A stretch of DNA of 64,000 bases from Escherichia phage ALITA. Of this stretch, positions 1 through 26,176 are shown piece after piece. The notes beneath the pieces are model-generated. The model had not been told where the DNA came from. It saw only the letters and a list, made by a program, of their open reading frames with translations, and made no database searches. The stretch lies in sequence record PP359570. One strand, written 5' to 3'. The translations under genes and the position numbers were made by a program. The stretch's first letter is position 1, and each line of letters begins with the position of its first letter.

Positions 1-582
1 ACGTGAGCTACTAAAACTACGTTTCGACGAAGAATAACTTTTCGAAGACTTACTATAAGAGCTAATAGGGCTTGAGTAAGACTTACGAGCAGAGTAATCA
101 CTATTCACTTTTGTTGTTGACGGGCGTGAATACGTTTGTACACTTTGCTGCTTAATTGTGTTTTGTTTAGTGGTTGTATATTTATTTCCTTGTTTATCAT
201 AAAAACTATGCTTTTGTGTTGTATATGCTTTACTGTTAGTTGTAGGAGCAGCGTTGTTATTAATAATTGTTGTACTGCTACCACCATCTCTATAACCGCC
301 ACCGCCACTATTACCACTCAACATATGACCAAGAAGCATACCTGTAGCAAACTCACCTACACCAGAAGAACCACTGCCGCCTCCTTGCACAACAACTGTT
401 GAAGGTTGTGCAGGTGCTGCTTGAACAACTTGAGGTGCAGGTTGATTTACATATTGTTCATCTACCATCTGATTTGGTGTTTGTTGGTAACGTTGATTTT
501 GTACATTTTCAGAATCATCACAACCTACCAGCAATGCACTACCTAATACAACTGCAACAATAAAAGATTTAATGTTTTTCAT
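1..582 (-). CDS. putative lipoprotein (partial; gene runs past the window start)
   Basis: ATG at about 580-582 on minus strand; N-terminus MKNIKSFIVAVVLGSALLVGC = signal peptide plus lipobox L-V-G-C; Gly/Ser/Thr-rich low-complexity body; reading frame open to position 1. Confidence 0.5.
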   Translation of the reverse strand, partial: MKNIKSFIVAVVLGSALLVGCDDSENVQNQRYQQTPNQMVDEQYVNQPAPQVVQAAPAQPSTVVVQGGGSGSSGVGEFATGMLLGHMLSGNSGGGGYRDGGSSTTIINNNAAPTTNSKAYTTQKHSFYDKQGNKYTTTKQNTIKQQSVQTYSRPSTTKVNSDYSARKSYSSPISSYSKSSKSYSSSKRSFSSSR

Positions 583-6152: not shown

Positions 6153-6623
6153 TTAGTCAGATTCCCAAATGTTGTCTTTCTTAACCCACATTCGTTGATT
6201 ATCTGAACCTCTATAACGTTTCGTTGTTGGTTGATTCATATCATACTTACCATCTATCACTATGTCAACCAGTTTTTTAATTTTCTCTGGAATTTCTTCA
6301 AAAAGATATCCTGTATATAAGACAATATCTTTTTTGTTTCCAAAACAATCTCTTACCTTCTCAAGAACATACTCTACAGTGTCAATGTTCTCTTTGTCAA
6401 GAGGTTCACCACCTAAAACTGTTAATCCTTTAATGAAAGGTCGAGATAAATCTTCCAAGATAAGATCTAATGTTTCAGTAGTGAACTCTTGTCCGTAGTT
6501 ATACGACCAGGCTTTCTGGTTAAAGCAGCCACGGCAACCGTGGCTACAACCGCTCACCCACAAAGAGCATCTTACACCATCACCGTTGAGCATGTCAACA
6601 GGTTCATATCCGGCGTAATTCAA
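6153..6623 (-). CDS. nrdG: anaerobic ribonucleotide reductase activating protein (radical SAM)
   Basis: 156 aa, Cys cluster CSLWVSGCSHGCRGC, immediately downstream of and overlapping nrdD. Confidence 0.8.
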   Translation of the reverse strand: MNYAGYEPVDMLNGDGVRCSLWVSGCSHGCRGCFNQKAWSYNYGQEFTTETLDLILEDLSRPFIKGLTVLGGEPLDKENIDTVEYVLEKVRDCFGNKKDIVLYTGYLFEEIPEKIKKLVDIVIDGKYDMNQPTTKRYRGSDNQRMWVKKDNIWESD

Positions 6624-8419
6624 AAATGTTTCTCCCTTTCTAGTACCTCTTGCATTTTACCTTTATTATAAGGGCGAGAGTTAGGGGCAGAAAGGTATCC
6701 TGACACTCTTCTGATTACAGATATAGATTCTTCCTCATGATTGCCACAACTTGGACACTCGAAGCCTTTAGCTGTTGCCTTAAATTCACCATGAAAACCA
6801 CATTTGAAACACTGATCTACAGGTTGGTTCACGCCAAAATAAGGAATTTTGTTGTAGGCATAATCTACAAGAGTTTCCAGTGCTTGCAAGTTATTTTTAA
6901 GGTTTGGTGTTTCTACATAACCTATGTTCCCACCGTTACTGATTTGTGCAAAACCTTCCTCATAATCCCACTTTTGGAACGGGGTAGTGTGCATCCACAC
7001 AGGTTGATGGAAAGAGTTTGTCAAGTAGTCACGATCAATAGAACCAGGATAGCGATCATTTAATGCTTTGGCAAATTTATAGCACAAGGATTCTGCTGGT
7101 GTTCCATACAAACTAAAAGCTAAACCAGAACGTTCTTTAAATGTGCCACAGATATCCTTCATATATTGAAGGATGTTTTTACCCATTGCTTTTGGATTGG
7201 TGTTACCTGGGTATAAAATCTCCATAGCTTCTGCTAAACCTACATAACCGATACTAATAGAGGCATAACCACCTTCAAATAGTTTACCAATCTCTTCATT
7301 AGCTTCTAGTCGAGCTAAAGCCCCTTCCATAAACAATGTAGGGTTTTGAGATGCTTTGGTATGTCTAATACGGTTAACACGTAGCATATGTGCCTTATAC
7401 GCCACCTCCATATGTTGTTCCAACAGTTCAGTAAATAAGATGCCCTTTTCACGGGACTCTGCTGCAATGATAGGTAAGTTTAAAGAAACTACGCCTAAGT
7501 TGAAACGACCATCATATTTTTCACCTTGCTCTGTTGCATAGTATGACAAGAAGCTACGGCAACCCATGCTTGTGACGCGACCATCTGAAGATCCTGTAAC
7601 TTCTTTATTTAAAGGTACAGAGATAAAATCAGGATAAATGCGTTCAGCACAACACTCCATTGCCAGTTGCTTCAAATCATAGTTTGGATCGCCAGCTTTC
7701 ATGTTAACACCATCTTCCAAGAAGAAGATAACTTTAGGAAACACAGGAGTTACCCTATCTTTTCCCAATCCTTGTTTGTGCACCATTAGGTAGTTTTTAG
7801 TGATCATTCTACCAAAAGCAGAGGTATCCAAACCTAAACTAATTGTTATAAAAGGTGACTGACCATTTACACTCATTAGAGTGTTCACCTGGTAGATTAA
7901 AGTTTGCATTGCATCATAGACCTGTTTATCTACCATACGCATAGCAATATCATAATCGCCAACATCGGCATATATTTTATTAAAACTTGCTTTAACGTAT
8001 TGACTAAGCCCAGTATCAACATGTGCACAAGTTTGTCCACCATATTGGCTAGAAGCTACTGCTTGAATAATTTGAGTTAGGACAGTAGTCGCTACACCGA
8101 TAGATTTTGGTTTTTCAATATGTGCATTACCAATACGGAAACCGTTCTCAAGCATATCTTGGTAATTTACCAGGCAACAATTAGTTAAAGGTGAGAGTAA
8201 ATAATCTAAATCGTGAATGTGACCATACCCACTTTTATGCCATTCTGCCAGATCTTCCGGTAAAATATGGGTCATTGCCATGTGCTTGCTTAGGATACCT
8301 GCTAGTAAGTCTCGGTGAGTATTAACAATCATTGCAGGTTTGTTTGCATTTTCACGAGTAAATTCTTCGGATGTTTGTTCGAGGAATCCGATTACATCCT
8401 CATATAGTTTTTGGGTCAT
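6620..8419 (-). CDS. nrdD: anaerobic ribonucleoside-triphosphate reductase
   Basis: ~600 aa; C-terminal glycine-radical motif RRVSGYLS and Zn-ribbon Cys pairs (CFKCGF...CPSCG); start set at MTQKL with GGAGG RBS; uninterrupted (no intron). Confidence 0.85.
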   Translation of the reverse strand: MTQKLYEDVIGFLEQTSEEFTRENANKPAMIVNTHRDLLAGILSKHMAMTHILPEDLAEWHKSGYGHIHDLDYLLSPLTNCCLVNYQDMLENGFRIGNAHIEKPKSIGVATTVLTQIIQAVASSQYGGQTCAHVDTGLSQYVKASFNKIYADVGDYDIAMRMVDKQVYDAMQTLIYQVNTLMSVNGQSPFITISLGLDTSAFGRMITKNYLMVHKQGLGKDRVTPVFPKVIFFLEDGVNMKAGDPNYDLKQLAMECCAERIYPDFISVPLNKEVTGSSDGRVTSMGCRSFLSYYATEQGEKYDGRFNLGVVSLNLPIIAAESREKGILFTELLEQHMEVAYKAHMLRVNRIRHTKASQNPTLFMEGALARLEANEEIGKLFEGGYASISIGYVGLAEAMEILYPGNTNPKAMGKNILQYMKDICGTFKERSGLAFSLYGTPAESLCYKFAKALNDRYPGSIDRDYLTNSFHQPVWMHTTPFQKWDYEEGFAQISNGGNIGYVETPNLKNNLQALETLVDYAYNKIPYFGVNQPVDQCFKCGFHGEFKATAKGFECPSCGNHEEESISVIRRVSGYLSAPNSRPYNKGKMQEVLEREKHF

Positions 8420-21126: not shown

Positions 21127-22254
21127 ATGAAATACACGATTTATGGTGATATTGTAAGTGTAAATAAAGATATGGGCGTGGAATCTAACTATCTTCCACC
21201 TGGATTCTATACTGTTAGTCGTGATCCCCTTGGCAATTATTTTTTAAGCCGTGGTAATCTAACAGGTGTACCGGATGTTTTGTATGGTGAAACAGAAAAA
21301 CGAGCAAATCACGTTATCCGTACATTCCATCGCCGGAGTGCACAAGGTAAAAACACAGGCTTGCTTCTGACAGGAACTAAGGGCAGTGGTAAAACTATGT
21401 TAGCCAAACTCATTAGTCGTGACCTTGTAGAAGAAGGTATTCCAACTATTATGGTTACTCAAGCCTACAGCGATGCTAATTTCATTGAACTTATTAGCAA
21501 GATCACCGACAAAGCAGTGATTATTTTTGACGAGTTTGATAAAGTATATGAGAAGAAACAAGATCAAGAAGCACTTCTCACTTTGTTAGATGGTACTGGG
21601 AGTGGTAATAAACTGTTTATTCTAACTAAAAACAGTGGTTTTATCTCTGAATTCTTTTTAAATCGTCCTAGTCGTGTGTTTTATAATTTTAATTATGATA
21701 AAATCTCACTAGAAACTATGATTGACTATTTAGATAAAAACTTGGATAACAAAGCACACTTTGATAATTTCCAAAGGCTTTGGGATGTAAGTTTAGAGTT
21801 GTCCTTTGATGTGATCCAAGGTATAGTAGAAGAACTTAATTTCTACCCTGATTTATCCTTTAAAGAATGCATCTCTATGATGGGCGTTTCTTTGGGTGGT
21901 GGTAATAAATGGGATATCAGCAGCGTTGTTATTAATGGAAAACTTCAGAAAGTTAGCTGGGTATCTAGTTGGCATAACTTCACACCTGCAATCTTCTTAG
22001 GTGGCTCGTGCACACTAGACGTGTACTTGTCATCTCCAAGTGATGCAGACTCTAAAGAAGCCCTTGCTAATAGCTCTTACGTGGTTTTTGATGATGAAGG
22101 CGATGCTCGAATTCCATTGAATGCGACAAAAATGAAAGCAGATCTTATTACAGGCGGTAAAATCGTTGTGTTTAGTGATGATCCAGAAGATTCTTTCCGT
22201 ATTGTTCTGGAACCAACTATCACCAATGGTGCAACTTTGGCAAGCGTGTTTTAA
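21127..22254 (+). CDS. P-loop NTPase (AAA-like ATPase), paralog B
   Basis: Walker A GTKGSGKT, Walker B VIIFDEFDK; N-terminal ~250 aa alignable to 4972..6132 product; C-terminus divergent. Confidence 0.6.
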   Translation: MKYTIYGDIVSVNKDMGVESNYLPPGFYTVSRDPLGNYFLSRGNLTGVPDVLYGETEKRANHVIRTFHRRSAQGKNTGLLLTGTKGSGKTMLAKLISRDLVEEGIPTIMVTQAYSDANFIELISKITDKAVIIFDEFDKVYEKKQDQEALLTLLDGTGSGNKLFILTKNSGFISEFFLNRPSRVFYNFNYDKISLETMIDYLDKNLDNKAHFDNFQRLWDVSLELSFDVIQGIVEELNFYPDLSFKECISMMGVSLGGGNKWDISSVVINGKLQKVSWVSSWHNFTPAIFLGGSCTLDVYLSSPSDADSKEALANSSYVVFDDEGDARIPLNATKMKADLITGGKIVVFSDDPEDSFRIVLEPTITNGATLASVF

Positions 22255-22328: not shown

Positions 22329-23735
22329 ATGCCAGCACCAAAATCATGGGAACAATATAAAGAAGAATTAACACCCCTTGCTAAAAATCACAACATTCAG
22401 ATTCTGGGTTATATTGGTGAATGGAAAGGGAGCAAGACTAAACTTAAGCTATCTTGCTCTGATCATGGGGAGTGGGAAAGTACCATAATCAATAGCTTTA
22501 AAACTAAAGGCGGTAAATGTTGCCCCGATTGCAATGGTCGTAGAAAAGTAACAGAAGAAAAGGAATGTATTTCCCTTGTTGATGTTGCTAAAGAAAGAGG
22601 GTTTACTTTTATAGGTCTTGCCGAAGAGTGGCGAGGTGTGCTAACAAAAATCCGCATAGTTTGCCCTAAACATGGAGAGTGGAACACCACGACCATTAGT
22701 GGTTTTAGGAAGGGACGTGGTTGTCCGGCATGTGCAAGTAATAAGCCGTTAACATGGGAAACAGAATTACCGATCTTGGAAGAGATAGCACAGAAGAAGG
22801 GGTATCAGGTGTTAGGGTACGTGGGAGAATGGAAAGGGATTGATACAAAACTTGATTTGTTGTGTCACTGTGGTAACAGATGGGATACTACAAGTATTAA
22901 CAGTTTTAAACATGATCATGGTTGTCCTTTATGTGGGTATGAGAATACAAGGAAGGCACAAACAATACCCGACGATCAACATATTGCAGATTTCTTTTCT
23001 ACAGGGAAATTTAAGGAAGGCACTATCTTTACCAATACAGGGAAACGTAGTTGTAGTAAAAACAAGGACATTATCTGGATGATCGAATGTCCTGTTTGCT
23101 CTCATGATGAGTATGTGCAAGCAGGTGTATGTGATGGTAAGTTTTATATGACACGTAGCGATCTTAAGGCTGGACACTTGCCCTGCCGCTGTGCAACTAA
23201 CTCTCATTATACAGAAAATCAGATTACCTACAGGGTAAAAAAGGAAGTAGAAGGGAGAGGGTATGTCTGGGTAGGTTGGATCGGTAAACCGTCTATAAGA
23301 CTGGGTAATTTTAAATATCTTTGTCTTGTTCATGGGGAACAAATTGGTAGTGCTTATCGCTTACTATATCAGGATAATGGTTGTCCACAATGTGCAGGTC
23401 ATAGTCAGCAGCAATTGTATGTTAATGTTGTTAAAGATAATGGTATTATAGTTGCTCTTAAGTTTGGTATATCTAAAGATAGTGCTAGGAGATTAAACAT
23501 TCAAAATAGGCGTAATATGTTTTTTATGGAGCGTATTTGTTTATATGATTTTAGTACAGTGAAGCAGTGTAAGGCTGCTGAAAGAGCTATAAAGAAAAAA
23601 TTAAAAACTGGTATCTTAACAGCAAGAGAGTTGAAAGATGGTTATACAGAAACAGTAAGTGTTTCTGATTTGGAAAATCTTCAAAAAATTATTACACAAT
23701 ATGGTGGCAAATTAGTATACAGTAAGGAGGTGTAA
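22329..23735 (+). CDS. tandem zinc-ribbon repeat protein with C-terminal GIY-YIG-like (T5orf172-type) domain
   Basis: About 5 repeats of GY.GEWKG..TKL...C..HGEW.TT.I..FK...GCP.C; C-terminal LYVNVV...ALKFGIS...RR...E resembles GIY / YIG / Arg / Glu arrangement. Confidence 0.45.
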   Translation: MPAPKSWEQYKEELTPLAKNHNIQILGYIGEWKGSKTKLKLSCSDHGEWESTIINSFKTKGGKCCPDCNGRRKVTEEKECISLVDVAKERGFTFIGLAEEWRGVLTKIRIVCPKHGEWNTTTISGFRKGRGCPACASNKPLTWETELPILEEIAQKKGYQVLGYVGEWKGIDTKLDLLCHCGNRWDTTSINSFKHDHGCPLCGYENTRKAQTIPDDQHIADFFSTGKFKEGTIFTNTGKRSCSKNKDIIWMIECPVCSHDEYVQAGVCDGKFYMTRSDLKAGHLPCRCATNSHYTENQITYRVKKEVEGRGYVWVGWIGKPSIRLGNFKYLCLVHGEQIGSAYRLLYQDNGCPQCAGHSQQQLYVNVVKDNGIIVALKFGISKDSARRLNIQNRRNMFFMERICLYDFSTVKQCKAAERAIKKKLKTGILTARELKDGYTETVSVSDLENLQKIITQYGGKLVYSKEV

Positions 23736-24287
23736 ATGCGGATTACTGATAAGTATGTGTTCTTCTTCTCGGCAAAAGATGAATTTAGCAACTGGTATCT
23801 ATCATCTTTTATTGAACCTTTAGCTCCCAAGTATAATAATTCTATTACAAGTTCTGTTGAATTTACTTGTGTGGAACAATATATGATGTGGAGAAAAGCA
23901 TGTTTGTTTTATGATTACAGTATTGCATCTTCTATTTTAACCGGAGATCTAAGATATACAGGAGAAAAAGAACAAGCATATTATAAACGACTAGGCAGAT
24001 TAGTTAAAGATTATGATGAAGATACCTGGGCTTCTTTACGGGAGAAGATTGTCAAGCGTGGTTTGTATCTTAAATACACACAAAATGAAGATCTCAAAAA
24101 TAAACTTATCGCTTACGCAGATAAGGAGTTCGTAGAGGCAAGCCCCTATGATTCTATTTATGGTATCAAAATGGGGATGTGGGATCGGGACGTGGAAAAT
24201 AAGGATTGTTGGAAAGGGCAAAATCTTTTAGGAAAATGGCATACAGACCTTGCTGTTTATCTAAAATCACAATCTGATATTTCCTGA
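23736..24287 (+). CDS. NADAR (YbiA/DUF1768-like) domain protein
   Basis: FFFS..DEFSNWY, EQYMMWRKA, LGRLV, KFVEASPYDSIYGIKMG match conserved NADAR blocks. Confidence 0.55.
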   Translation: MRITDKYVFFFSAKDEFSNWYLSSFIEPLAPKYNNSITSSVEFTCVEQYMMWRKACLFYDYSIASSILTGDLRYTGEKEQAYYKRLGRLVKDYDEDTWASLREKIVKRGLYLKYTQNEDLKNKLIAYADKEFVEASPYDSIYGIKMGMWDRDVENKDCWKGQNLLGKWHTDLAVYLKSQSDIS

Positions 24288-24504
24288 TATTTTGAAAATT
24301 TTTATTTTTATAAAAAGGGGTGTGGGTTTCATGTACGGAAATCCACCCTCTGAATAATATATCCAGAGTAAGTAGTATTCTGTACTCTGTTAATAAAGTA
24401 TTTAATTTGTTTGTTGGATTATGGTGGCTGATCTTTAAAAGGCATACTATCTCTTAACTACTACTTATAACAAAACAGTAAAATCCTTTTTATAAAAGTA
24501 CAAA

Positions 24505-24715
24505 ATTATTTAAAGTTTTTACAGATTTTCGGGTACAAATTTTGAAAATGAAAAGTTCAAGTTTGGTCAAAATTATTTAAAGTTTTTGTACGTATTTCTG
24601 TCCAGATTTTGAAAATGAAAACTTCAATTTTTTAAAAATTCCCCAGTTTATTTAAAGTTTTTTTGCCTTTTTCCGTAGAAAAATCAAAAATGAAAAGTTC
24701 AATTTCGTGTTTTTA
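24505..24715. repeat. three ~70-bp imperfect direct repeats (iteron-like)
   Basis: Each unit contains TATTTAAAGTTTTT ... TTGAAAATGAAAA(G/C)TTCAA; non-coding, AT-rich. Confidence 0.6.
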
Positions 24716-24723
24716 TAGGTGTG

Positions 24724-24840
24724 TTAATGAGAATCATTTTCGTTTGTAAATGAGAATCATTATCATTTAACTATGTAAGTGATAATCATTCTCAGTAAGA
24801 GAATGAGAATCATTAGCAAATGAGAATTTTTCTCATTTAC
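24724..24840. promoter_or_regulatory. cluster of five Fur-box-like palindromic sites (AATGAGAATCATT family)
   Basis: AATGAGAATCATT x3, GTGATAATCATTCTC, and perfect palindrome AAATGAGAA-TTT-TTCTCATTT; core matches part of the GATAATGATAATCATTATC consensus. Confidence 0.45.
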
Positions 24841-25098
24841 AGAATAACGCGCAGGGGCGGTGTTTGTCTCGCGCTCCCGTGTCCCCTCGCCATACAATAA
24901 GAATAGCATAACCAATAACAAAAGCAAGCGATTATTTTTATCTTTACATTTCTTTACAAATTTATTTTAGACGAGCTACCGGCGATCAACCTTCCAACCA
25001 GTGCCCCCTGGTATGTTAGCCCCGCCTTTACGCCGTGGGGTGGCGTTTCCTCTTCTGTATGTAAAACAGTATAAGCCCGATCCCTGGGCTTGTCAAGA

Positions 25099-25365
25099 TT
25101 ATTTTTTGTTTTCTTGCCAGGATAGGACACCTAACCAAAAATACATGTCGCCCCGCGCCCCTGGTGGGATCTTGCTTTCCCCGCCGCCACTGCAAGCCCA
25201 TAAATAACCATCAGCGAACGGATCAAAGTGATCTATCTCTTCCACCTTATGATCGCCCAGGTTGAGAACGGTTTCAACCTTTAAGCCCGTTGCGCTTGCT
25301 ACCTGGTGCACCGTGCCGCCTTGCCAGCCCAGTGAGTGCATGAGATGTAAAGAAGTATTTGTCAT
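25099..25365 (-). CDS. hypothetical protein in GC-rich segment (uncertain)
   Basis: 88-aa ORF with GC-rich, enteric-like codon usage unlike flanking phage DNA; weak RBS; 3' end overlaps a consensus TTGACA-17-TATACT promoter on the same strand. Confidence 0.25.
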   Translation of the reverse strand: MTNTSLHLMHSLGWQGGTVHQVASATGLKVETVLNLGDHKVEEIDHFDPFADGYLWACSGGGESKIPPGARGDMYFWLGVLSWQENKK

Positions 25366-25737
25366 GGTATCGCCCTTTCTTTGTTGTGCGCCCTGGTTGG
25401 CGCGGTAGAAAGATGATAGCCGTTTCCTTCATATATAGCAAGCAAAAAAGAAATGAAAAAAAGATTAAAAAATGGTTGACGTTCCTCACCTGGTAGCGTA
25501 GTATTCATCTTGTCGAGGGGGGCAAGACACAACGACAATAAACAATAGGCGGGTGCAATGCAAGACGGGCAAAGGTGAGGATCTCCACAATCCACCGTCA
25601 CAATAACATTACTTATAAAAGGTTGATAACGATGATCAAGAAAGAAAATAGCTTGACGGTTGGAACGATTAACGCTATCATTCTTGCCGTTCCATTTTGG
25701 ATTGTAGTTGCGGTTATTATTTTCTAAAAAAATATTC

Positions 25738-25793
25738 TTGACAACGTTTTTTAATCTGATAAGATGTATCACATAGGGCGGCAATAGTGCCGC
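25738..25793 (+). promoter_or_regulatory. promoter plus 5' stem-loop cassette (PeSL-like) #1
   Basis: TTGACA, 16-nt spacer, TAAGAT, then CACATAGG-GCGGCA-ATAG-TGCCGC hairpin about 25 nt before the ATG. Confidence 0.6.
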
Positions 25794-25817
25794 TCATAAC
25801 AGAAGAGAGAAATAATC

Positions 25818-26093: not shown

Positions 26094-26154
26094 TTGACAC
26101 TGAAAAATAATTTGATAATATATACCACATAAGGCGGGGAAATGGTTTCCCGCC
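26094..26154 (+). promoter_or_regulatory. PeSL-like cassette #2
   Basis: TTGACA-16-TAATAT then GGCGGGGAAATGGTTTCCCGCC hairpin. Confidence 0.6.
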
Positions 26155-26176
26155 AAATCAAAGAAAGGGTAATGCA

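Follow-up and report, generated by a model that had tools for sequence, protein, structure and literature searches.

The primary origin of phage T7 consists of the tandem promoters 1.1A and 1.1B followed by AT-rich DNA, the phage T4 origins oriF and oriG combine a promoter with an unwinding element and an R-loop primer, and RNA II of plasmid ColE1 has a structured 5′ domain that contains G clusters. The oop RNA of phage lambda is 77 nt long, carries a clear intrinsic terminator and is antisense to cII. In phage HK022, putL and putR specify cis-encoded antiterminator RNAs of ~70 nt, each with two bulged stem-loops (PMC9378689). Here, we describe a locus that can be compared with each of these systems in a 64,000-nt stretch of DNA from Escherichia phage ALITA (sequence record PP359570), referred to below as the window. 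A GC-rich segment of the window at 24840–25500 is a composite of three parts, namely a small phage gene encoding an 88-aa protein, a minus-strand promoter (P1) followed by a conserved structured element of ~71 nt (element A), and a downstream module. The module comprises a direct-repeat box, a second promoter (P0), a GC-rich stem-loop (element B), a series of Fur-box-like palindromes and long AT-rich direct repeats. Comparison across related phages suggests that element A is probably transcribed as a functional RNA, representing a new family of phage non-coding RNA.

As in the T7 primary origin, T4 oriF/oriG and ColE1, P1 and P0 point into AT-rich, repeat-bearing and gene-free DNA, and the predicted P1 transcript, like ColE1 RNA II, has a structured 5′ domain with a G cluster and would, in the mechanism proposed below, be an early product of the host polymerase. 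Unlike in the T7, T4 and ColE1 origins, phased Fur-box-like palindromes separate the promoters from the repeats; neither an antisense regulator nor an initiator was identified at the locus, and no sequence similarity to plasmid origins was found. Element A resembles the HK022 put RNAs in its length of ~70 nt, its position just past a predicted early sigma-70 promoter, its two predicted stem-loops with bulges and its occurrence in a gamma-proteobacterial phage, but it resides in a large virulent myophage rather than a lambdoid phage, its first hairpin is short, no genes lie downstream of it on the same strand and it has no Rfam match. The predicted transcript resembles lambda oop in being a short leftward product of a constitutive sigma-70 promoter that opposes the surrounding early genes near a presumed origin, whereas element A has neither a terminator nor an overlapping sense gene. 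The palindromes resemble Fur operators (7-1-7 TGATAATnATTATCA) in being 15 bp long, differing from them mainly at position 4 and its mirror position, with some half-sites identical to the consensus; unlike Fur operators, they are located downstream of the promoters instead of over them, and they recur in 2–5 copies at 29-bp spacing in a virulent phage. Element A probably represents a new RNA family of a familiar kind, the promoter-proximal structured phage RNA, in an unusually rigid context.

Promoter P1 and the conserved element A

P1 (25068..25096, minus strand) is a promoter of the sigma-70 type with the sequence TTGACA-17-TATACT, which matches the consensus at 11 of 12 positions and was the best match between 23800 and 26600 in a consensus scan. 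Its hexamers are located at 25096..25091 (TTGACA) and 25073..25068 (TATACT), with a predicted start at 25062–25060. An earlier note on this DNA had proposed a minus-strand promoter of this sequence with a transcript start near 25060, aimed into the cluster of Fur-like palindromes; the promoter is real, with the coordinates in the note off by 1–3 nt, the predicted start agrees with the one proposed, and the palindromes do lie in the direction of transcription, at a fixed downstream distance in every lineage. Across the window, 14 sites matched the consensus at 11 or more of 12 positions, compared with 2.9 ± 1.8 in Markov shuffles, suggesting that such sites are largely functional early promoters, and P1 is the sole minus-strand site of this quality within the block of plus-strand early genes (~20–47 kb).

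A sigma-70 promoter is present just upstream of element A, in the minus sense, in all 35 distinct variants of the element. Among these variants, the −35 hexamer is TTGACA, TTGACG, TTGCAA or TTGCTT, the −10 hexamer is of the TAnnnT or CATAAT type, and the spacer is 16–18 bp long. The spacers are unrelated in sequence, and the distance from the −10 hexamer to the first helix of element A ranges from 14 to 23 nt. The retention of the hexamers while the spacers turn over is the pattern expected of selection on a promoter, and this comparison of sequences shows P1 to be a conserved promoter of the host sigma-70 type.

The core of element A occupies 24976..25046 on the minus strand (~71 nt), as defined by conservation, covariation and a covariance-model match. 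The window belongs to a phi92-like coliphage. Across all of 24300–25800, it shares 96–97% identity with Escherichia phages that include Antha, inny and alia, and a sub-stretch is 96.5% identical to phi92; these relatives are all members of the genus Justusliebigvirus within the Stephanstirmvirinae. A blastn search of 50,697 phage records with 24960–25420 as the query and sensitive settings matched 230 records. The entire query aligned in phi92- and phAPEC8-like phages; in Vequintavirinae, which here included phages of Klebsiella, Salmonella, Cronobacter, Pectobacterium, Enterobacter, Serratia and Raoultella, only query positions 4–106 aligned, with 81–88% identity. When the window was compared with Vequintavirinae (Certrevirus, Mydovirus and Serratia-phage loci), identity peaked at 80–98% over 24970–25049, and most other 40-nt bins were 40–72% identical. 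Five Vequintavirinae loci were examined (phiTE, CR3, KB57, ChuuTotoro and SSBI34), and only one of 14 flanking proteins from the fetched loci of this subfamily had a tblastn match anywhere in the window. A pattern search added 16 viral contigs, 17 metagenome contigs and one contig of a metagenome-assembled genome (MAG), bringing the total to the 35 distinct variants. In the window, element A is present in a single copy (covariance model, 24934–25066, minus strand, 154 bits). Within the reach of these sequence searches, element A is a probable RNA family confined to phages of the Stephanstirmvirinae and Vequintavirinae. Therapy cocktails and phage collections make wide use of rV5- and phi92-like phages, for which element A offers a compact marker in metagenomes.

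Two records outside the expected hosts were also noted. The sole match among 185,579 GTDB species genomes was the 4-kb MAG contig JAEZZU010000352.1 ('Proteobacteria bacterium OH_PFB_59'), in which the element and its flanks are near-identical to phAPEC8-like variants, and which probably represents phage sequence assigned to a bacterial genome during binning. Records MG065645.1 and MG065650.1 ('Campylobacter phage A145/B15', ~146–151 kb) are 96–97% identical over the 461 nt queried; their Campylobacter host label is probably wrong or reflects contamination.

RNAalifold, applied to 20 sequences, gave three helices in element A. The first hairpin, CGCC(ACCCCAC)GGCG at 25045..25031, has 4 bp and is invariant, helix P2a pairs GGCGG (25026..25022) with UCGCC (24985..24981), and the distal helix is broken by a 2 × 2 internal loop (UAA/GAA) and a bulged nucleotide and ends in a variable tip, the variable bulged hairpin spanning 25012..24997. 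In alignments of 35–36 distinct sequences, 96.5–97.3% of the cells in the consensus helices are paired, and 5–6 pairs are changed on both sides, including one pair that is A-U in 21 sequences and G-C in 15, and another that is C-G in 30 and G-C in 5. None of 500 shuffles reached the observed paired fraction or covariation score, and sliding the helix partners by 1–3 columns reduced pairing to 19–56%. The structure belongs to the minus strand, with 41 G-U cells and 96.5% pairing in the minus sense versus 90.0% in the plus sense, and in one divergent lineage the tip is replaced by a cUUCGg tetraloop in the minus sense. Element A is a near-invariant block shared by two subfamilies whose neighbouring genes are dissimilar, and its conserved promoter and covarying helix mark it as a probable functional RNA. 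The earlier note had suggested a small RNA transcribed leftward from ~25060; the conserved promoter, the conservation peak downstream of it, the covarying helix and the non-coding nature of the block all agree with that suggestion, the RNA itself being predicted from these sequence features.

Element A does not encode a protein. Near-identical phages differ by 1–2-nt indels in its C-run and G-run, and the variable hairpin changes in length by non-multiples of 3; such frameshifting indels among close relatives exclude a coding role. Plus-frame coding was considered for the variable sites at 24976–24990, which fall mostly at third codon positions (a phase bias with a chance of ~0.05 by a rough estimate), and was rejected on the basis of the frameshifting indels and of the open frame itself (24919–25074, plus strand), which contains no ATG, GTG or TTG. 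Two of the variable sites in this stretch are explained by pairing, one as a change from G-C to G-U and the other as A-U/G-C covariation. A 58-aa minus-strand open reading frame (ORF) that runs through element A (25130..24954) was rejected as well, given that it starts upstream of the P1 start site and is subject to the same indels.

Several further candidate features of element A were tried and discarded. A closing helix between its 5′ leader and 3′ tail showed no covariation, a role as a CsrA sponge was dropped in view of GGA motifs that are not kept in all lineages, and resemblances to the 16S anti-Shine-Dalgarno sequence, the rrn boxA, 5S rRNA and CRISPR repeats, judged by eye, involved stretches that were too short or located in variable parts. 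Separately, the leader of element A, ACAGAAGAGGAAAC, resembles the ribosome-site sequence of early mRNAs, and no start codon follows it.

Searches for known relatives of element A were negative within their respective scopes. The Rfam homology search suggested by the earlier note matched no family: a 3.5-kb search gave no overlap with element A at E ≤ 1, and a permissive search of 24830–25110 (281 nt) against Rfam 15 gave best scores of 12–16 bits (E 1.4–7.6) compared with thresholds of 44–100 bits. ARAGORN found no tRNA or tmRNA gene in the whole window. A blastn search of E. coli (5,426 complete genomes, 20,395 records) returned no match at E 1e-5 or at E 10, leaving the idea of a captured host-derived gene fragment unsupported. 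The plasmid search detected no similarity to origins, its matches being limited to the palindromes and to an AT-rich 26-mer that is attributable to chance, and complementarity to element A within the window was limited to chance-level 9–12-mers. The literature searched contained neither a description of element A nor a transcriptome of these phages, and the sequence of the element did not occur in its text.

The module downstream of element A

Past its last helix, element A is followed by GGUAGCUCGUCUAAAAUAAA, and a scan of the minus strand from 25060 to 24900 detected nothing resembling a terminator. The first candidate 3′ end after element A is provided by element B together with UUAUUCUGU at ~24845, and it is weak. 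Two other candidates were rejected. Hairpins in the P0 spacer, where termination would yield an element A small RNA, are weak and inconsistent, and the hairpin at 24308–24345, which as a minus-strand terminator would bound an RNA of ~750 nt, folds more stably in the plus sense and lacks conservation in Vequintavirinae.

The first component of the module is a direct-repeat box, UUUGUAAAGAaaUGUAAAGA, at 24941..24960 on the minus strand, which contains two GTAAAGA copies 11 nt apart and lies immediately upstream of the P0 −35 region. Counted from where the element A match ends, the box (TTTGTAAAGAnnnGTAAAGA) starts at +21/+22 in every locus but the one with the Raoultella phage Ro1 insertion, and its columns are nearly invariant in the alignment. 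P0 itself (24900..24927, minus strand) reads TTGCTT-16-TATTCT, with a predicted start at ~24893; at 8 of 12 consensus positions, it fell below the threshold of the promoter scan. In Vequintavirinae, P0 takes the form GCTTGCAA-17-TATATT, and among 26 aligned variants its −10 hexamer is TAnnnT in 25 and TAATAA in one, with the TTG of the −35 hexamer kept.

Element B (24845..24893, minus strand) forms the 5′ end of the predicted P0 transcript and consists of a GC-rich stem-loop with the conserved loop AGACAAACACC, after which UUAUUCUGU follows. The loop is found at +99..112 past element A in ~24 of 41 loci. Pairing in the outer helix reaches 87.5% and includes many G-U pairs. The predicted P0 start resembles the 5′ ends of plus-strand early mRNAs, which carry CACAUAG and a GC stem-loop at 25770 and 26130.

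The predicted leftward transcription is directed at five Fur-box-like 7-1-7 palindromes (TGAGAATnATTCTCA and variants) spanning 24728..24835, with sites at 24728–24742, 24751–24765, 24780–24794, 24804–24818 and 24821–24835. All five are within 3 mismatches of TGAGAATnATTCTCA, a variant that departs from the Fur core at 2 of its 14 specified positions. The palindromes number 2–5 copies, with a spacing of 29 bp in most lineages, and the first one past element A is located at +133–137, or at +145/146 in phi92-like and phAPEC8-like loci. An 11-bp insertion, ATTATTTTTAT, distinguishes phi92-like phages from Vequintavirinae at 24929–24939, between the repeat box and the P0 −35 hexamer; it accounts for the palindrome offset of the phi92-like loci and displaces everything downstream of it by roughly one turn of the helix. 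A 45-nt stretch of the palindromes is 87% identical to Moraxella osloensis plasmid DNA that ends 19 nt upstream of the iucA/iucC siderophore operon, and a position upstream of a siderophore operon is where a Fur operator is expected. The palindromes may bind, or titrate, host Fur; if they bind it, a virulent phage would be tied, unusually, to the iron status of its host.

Beyond the palindromes, three direct repeats of 67–77 bp occupy 24487..24705 in AT-rich DNA (GC 0.23–0.26). The five Vequintavirinae loci also carry three repeats, with a period of 63–78 bp and a different sequence (~1560–1780 of the fetched loci). Several of the Vequintavirinae repeats contain paired GATC sites, such as CTCGATCGnTTTTTC...GATCGTAT, recalling origin repeats rich in Dam sites. 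Taken as a whole, the interval 24290–24840 has a GC content of 0.23–0.37, contains the five palindromes and three long repeats and no conserved ORF, and is the region into which both P1 and P0 point.

The Ro1 insertion directly follows element A and carries an ORF, equipped with a ribosome-binding site of its own, for a 169-aa endonuclease-like protein. It occupies 6260–7134 of the fetched stretch and is flanked by a duplication of ~10 nt (ATCGCYGGYA); at its far end, a new promoter precedes a degenerate A-like leader (58 bits) that abuts the box. It appears that a mobile gene has targeted the highly conserved site of element A, and as the insert brings its own promoter and A-like leader, promoter-driven transcription into the downstream module seems to matter. 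With its fixed layout, the array as a whole defines exact positions at which mutagenesis and the mapping of transcript ends and origins can be aimed.

Proposed function of element A and alternative explanations

We propose that the host sigma-70 polymerase reads P1 and generates a leftward non-coding transcript from ~25061, the first ~90 nt of which would fold into element A. Transcription would then run on over the repeat box, P0, element B, the 29-bp-phased operators and the ~70-bp AT-rich repeats, making element A the cis-acting 5′ domain of an early non-coding transcript. In this position, element A could condition the transcript or the polymerase for passage into the origin-like region, or for the formation of an RNA–DNA hybrid there, and host Fur or another dimeric palindrome-binding protein could gate the leftward transcription. 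The lack of a terminator after element A, the fixed distances and the tandem promoters leading into gene-free AT-rich repeats together favour a cis-acting leader or primer RNA, and we tentatively assign element A such a role in an origin-like or regulatory region. For the segment in its entirety, the combination of a phage gene, P1 with element A and an origin-like module seems to us the best explanation, a judgement held with modest confidence. Two bolder readings are rather unlikely in our estimation: that the module is the replication origin of rV5- and phi92-like phages, primed or opened by a structured RNA and gated by Fur, or that element A belongs to a new class of polymerase-binding or ligand-sensing RNA. 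If the origin reading were true, phage DNA replication would be coupled to host iron status. In the rV5 genome paper, this area appears as a gene-free box labelled 'non-coding', and the origin could not be placed (PMC3606486).

Several points weigh against this proposal. The P1 transcript is a prediction from sequence comparison, and P0 is weak in the window (8/12 by our own count). All covariation in element A is confined to the distal helix; the first hairpin and P2a are essentially invariant and uninformative on structure, their only informative change being from G-C to G-U in three sequences. Single-sequence folds are no more stable than those of shuffles (z −1.4 to +0.3 across the segment; −1.36 in the minus sense and −0.12 in the plus sense for element A), so that the case for structure comes from between-phage comparison, not from thermodynamics. 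The consensus structure of element B was not supported, with covariation no better than in controls. The GC skew tracks gene orientation and gives no replication signal at the locus, in agreement with the conclusion of the rV5 genome paper (PMC3606486), no initiator protein was identified there, and the genes adjoining the module differ between the subfamilies. We know of no link between Fur-box-like sequences and replication origins. Finally, the constant 21-nt spacing and the extreme invariance fit a protein-binding array at the DNA level equally well.

The main rival to a cis-acting leader is that element A constitutes a discrete trans-acting small RNA (sRNA), either a base-pairing regulator or a decoy for a host protein or RNA, which would be released by processing or by later termination and whose near-invariance across phages of Enterobacterales would reflect an invariant host target. 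Element A would suit such a role with its own strong and conserved promoter, its single copy per genome, its compact core with an invariant single-stranded ACCCCAC loop, an AAAG linker and internal loops, and the A/U-rich stretch downstream of it, which could bind an RNA chaperone; moreover, the pseudo-ToxI of phiTE provides a precedent, in the same phage group, for a phage non-coding RNA aimed at host systems (PMC3475682). However, no intrinsic terminator of the kind that ends a classical Hfq-type sRNA gene follows element A, leaving the sRNA without an evident 3′ end, and the strictly constant distance to the box, the promoter and the palindromes is unexpected for a free-standing sRNA gene. 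Complementarity in the window did not extend beyond chance 9–12-mers, and no similarity was found in E. coli. We consider a trans-acting sRNA possible though unlikely.

By analogy with HK022 put, which acts in cis through the beta-prime zinc-binding domain of the polymerase to suppress termination, element A could instead be a nascent RNA that makes its own polymerase resistant to pausing, termination and roadblocks, such as Fur bound to the palindromes. Like the put RNAs as they are described (PMC9378689), it is promoter-proximal, measures ~70–75 nt, has two stem-loops, one of them long with bulges and internal loops, and would be made by the host sigma-70 polymerase, a near-invariant surface of which could account for the extreme conservation; roadblock-like operator sites also lie directly downstream. 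The likeness is one of description, however, the first hairpin having 4 bp compared with the long stem I of put, and no minus-strand genes downstream would gain from antitermination, except in Ro1. A put-like function is, on these grounds, improbable.

We regard as equally doubtful the explanation that the conserved block acts as DNA, in the form of a protein-binding array or a single-strand initiation hairpin, with the promoter merely opening or activating the region. Such a function would be consistent with the rigid spacing over ~350 bp, the 29-bp phasing of the palindromes, two of three helices that never vary and the unremarkable folding energies, but the G-U (G-T) pairs and the asymmetry in pairing favour one strand as RNA, the UUCG tetraloop of one lineage points the same way, and a variable hairpin that shifts in length and sequence yet stays paired is atypical of a duplex protein site. 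The least tenable explanation, that the whole segment is ordinary coding DNA or a host fragment with a promoter arising by chance, draws on the 88-aa ORF being a real gene with homologs of conserved length within an island of high GC at third codon positions (GC3, 0.53), but is extremely improbable and is refuted for 24840–25098 by the indel pattern and by promoter conservation, as the ORF stops at 25099, no conserved reading frame occupies 24840–25098, near-identical phages differ there by frameshifting indels, the promoter is kept across 35 variants and no match was found in E. coli.

The 88-aa gene and neighbouring features

The minus-strand ORF at 25099..25365 encodes a conserved phage protein of 88 aa with a predicted five-helix fold. 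It matches PHROG 19316 end to end (E 1.7e-58), with homologs of 86–93 aa, and the N-terminal ~40 residues have a further match in PHROG 33408. This second family includes phiTE_079, which holds the equivalent position in Vequintavirinae. A search of 5.8 billion proteins yielded homologs in 21 clusters, mostly 86–93 aa in length and none with a Pfam domain, several of them encoded on contigs of ~140–148 kb. The homolog alignment contains 17 invariant columns and the N-terminal motif LxWQGGTVHQVAxxTGLxV. The AlphaFold2 model is confident (pLDDT 94) and comprises five helices; fold searches for the protein returned no relatives. By these sequence comparisons, the ORF is an ordinary conserved phage gene.

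The ORF was present as given in the earlier note, whereas its overlap with the promoter, also claimed there, was not found; the ORF ends 3 nt ahead of the −35 hexamer and so abuts P1. The note had named, as part of what would count against its reading, clear protein homologs of conserved length that explain the segment as ordinary coding DNA. Such homologs exist, and they account for 25099–25365 but not for 24840–25098. The short segment of much higher GC described in the note is borne out, with a GC content of 0.475 at 24840–25500 compared with a window mean of 0.373 (sd 0.027 in intervals of 661 nt), a value equalled or exceeded in 2 of 1267 such intervals, and the three 200-nt intervals of highest GC in the 64 kb start at 25141, 25121 and 25001. 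GC-rich inverted repeats were likewise located, at 25091..25073, in the element A helices, at 24845–24893 and at 25386–25404. The GC3 of the 88-aa ORF is 0.53, compared with 0.29–0.47 in neighbouring genes, making it a compositional island, and the related Vequintavirinae loci have a GC content of 0.42–0.51; it is plausible that the gene was acquired from a phage lineage of higher GC, but not that it came from the host.

A hairpin within the P1 spacer (25073..25091, minus strand; −8.8 kcal/mol) forms a terminator-like 3′ end for the transcript of the 88-aa gene. It consists of AAGCCC-AGGGAUC-GGGCUU, with a 6-bp stem containing 4 GC pairs and the tail AUACUGUUUU, and was scored as a minus-strand intrinsic terminator, in which the U-rich stretch is provided by the −10 hexamer of P1 plus GUUUU. 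In other lineages, promoters of the TTGACR class contain a spacer hairpin as well, with folding energies mostly from −9 to −16 kcal/mol; several of these hairpins have a GAAA, GCAA or GUAA loop. By its sequence, the P1-spacer hairpin looks like a terminator that serves the transcript of the 88-aa gene while forming part of the next promoter, and both the ORF and this embedded terminator-promoter deserve annotation as such. Phage CR3, without the 88-aa ORF, has a single promoter at the site. Upstream of the gene, a candidate promoter, TTGCTA-17-TATCAT (25413..25441, minus strand), was recognised by the consensus scan alone and is weak (9/12), and a GC-rich hairpin (25386..25404, minus strand; −12.6 kcal/mol, z −2.05) lies in the 5′ untranslated region.

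Gene orientation in the window changes twice, from minus to plus at ~19.2 kb and back to minus at ~47.5 kb, with small early genes making up the plus-strand block. The GC-rich patch sits ~5 kb into the plus-strand block, in a gap of ~1.2 kb (24288–25575) whose single ORF is on the minus strand. The plus-strand neighbours upstream of the gap encode an AAA+ ATPase that weakly resembles clamp loaders and helicase loaders of the DnaC type (21127–22254), a CapR/T5orf172-type endonuclease that is probably mobile (22329–23735) and a NADAR-domain protein (23736–24287). Located 20 nt past the end of the NADAR gene, the hairpin at 24308–24345 has its stable form in the plus sense but a U-run on its minus-sense side; the 78-nt stretch that holds it folds at −20.9 kcal/mol (z −2.8, plus sense), and the hairpin may be a bidirectional terminator that bounds the non-coding region. 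On the other side of the gap, plus-strand early promoters occur at 25738–25817 and 26094–26176, with TTGACA-16-TAAGAT and TAATAT hexamers and a TG extension. After each of them come CACAUA(G/A)G, a 5′ stem-loop rich in GC and a ribosome site rich in purines.

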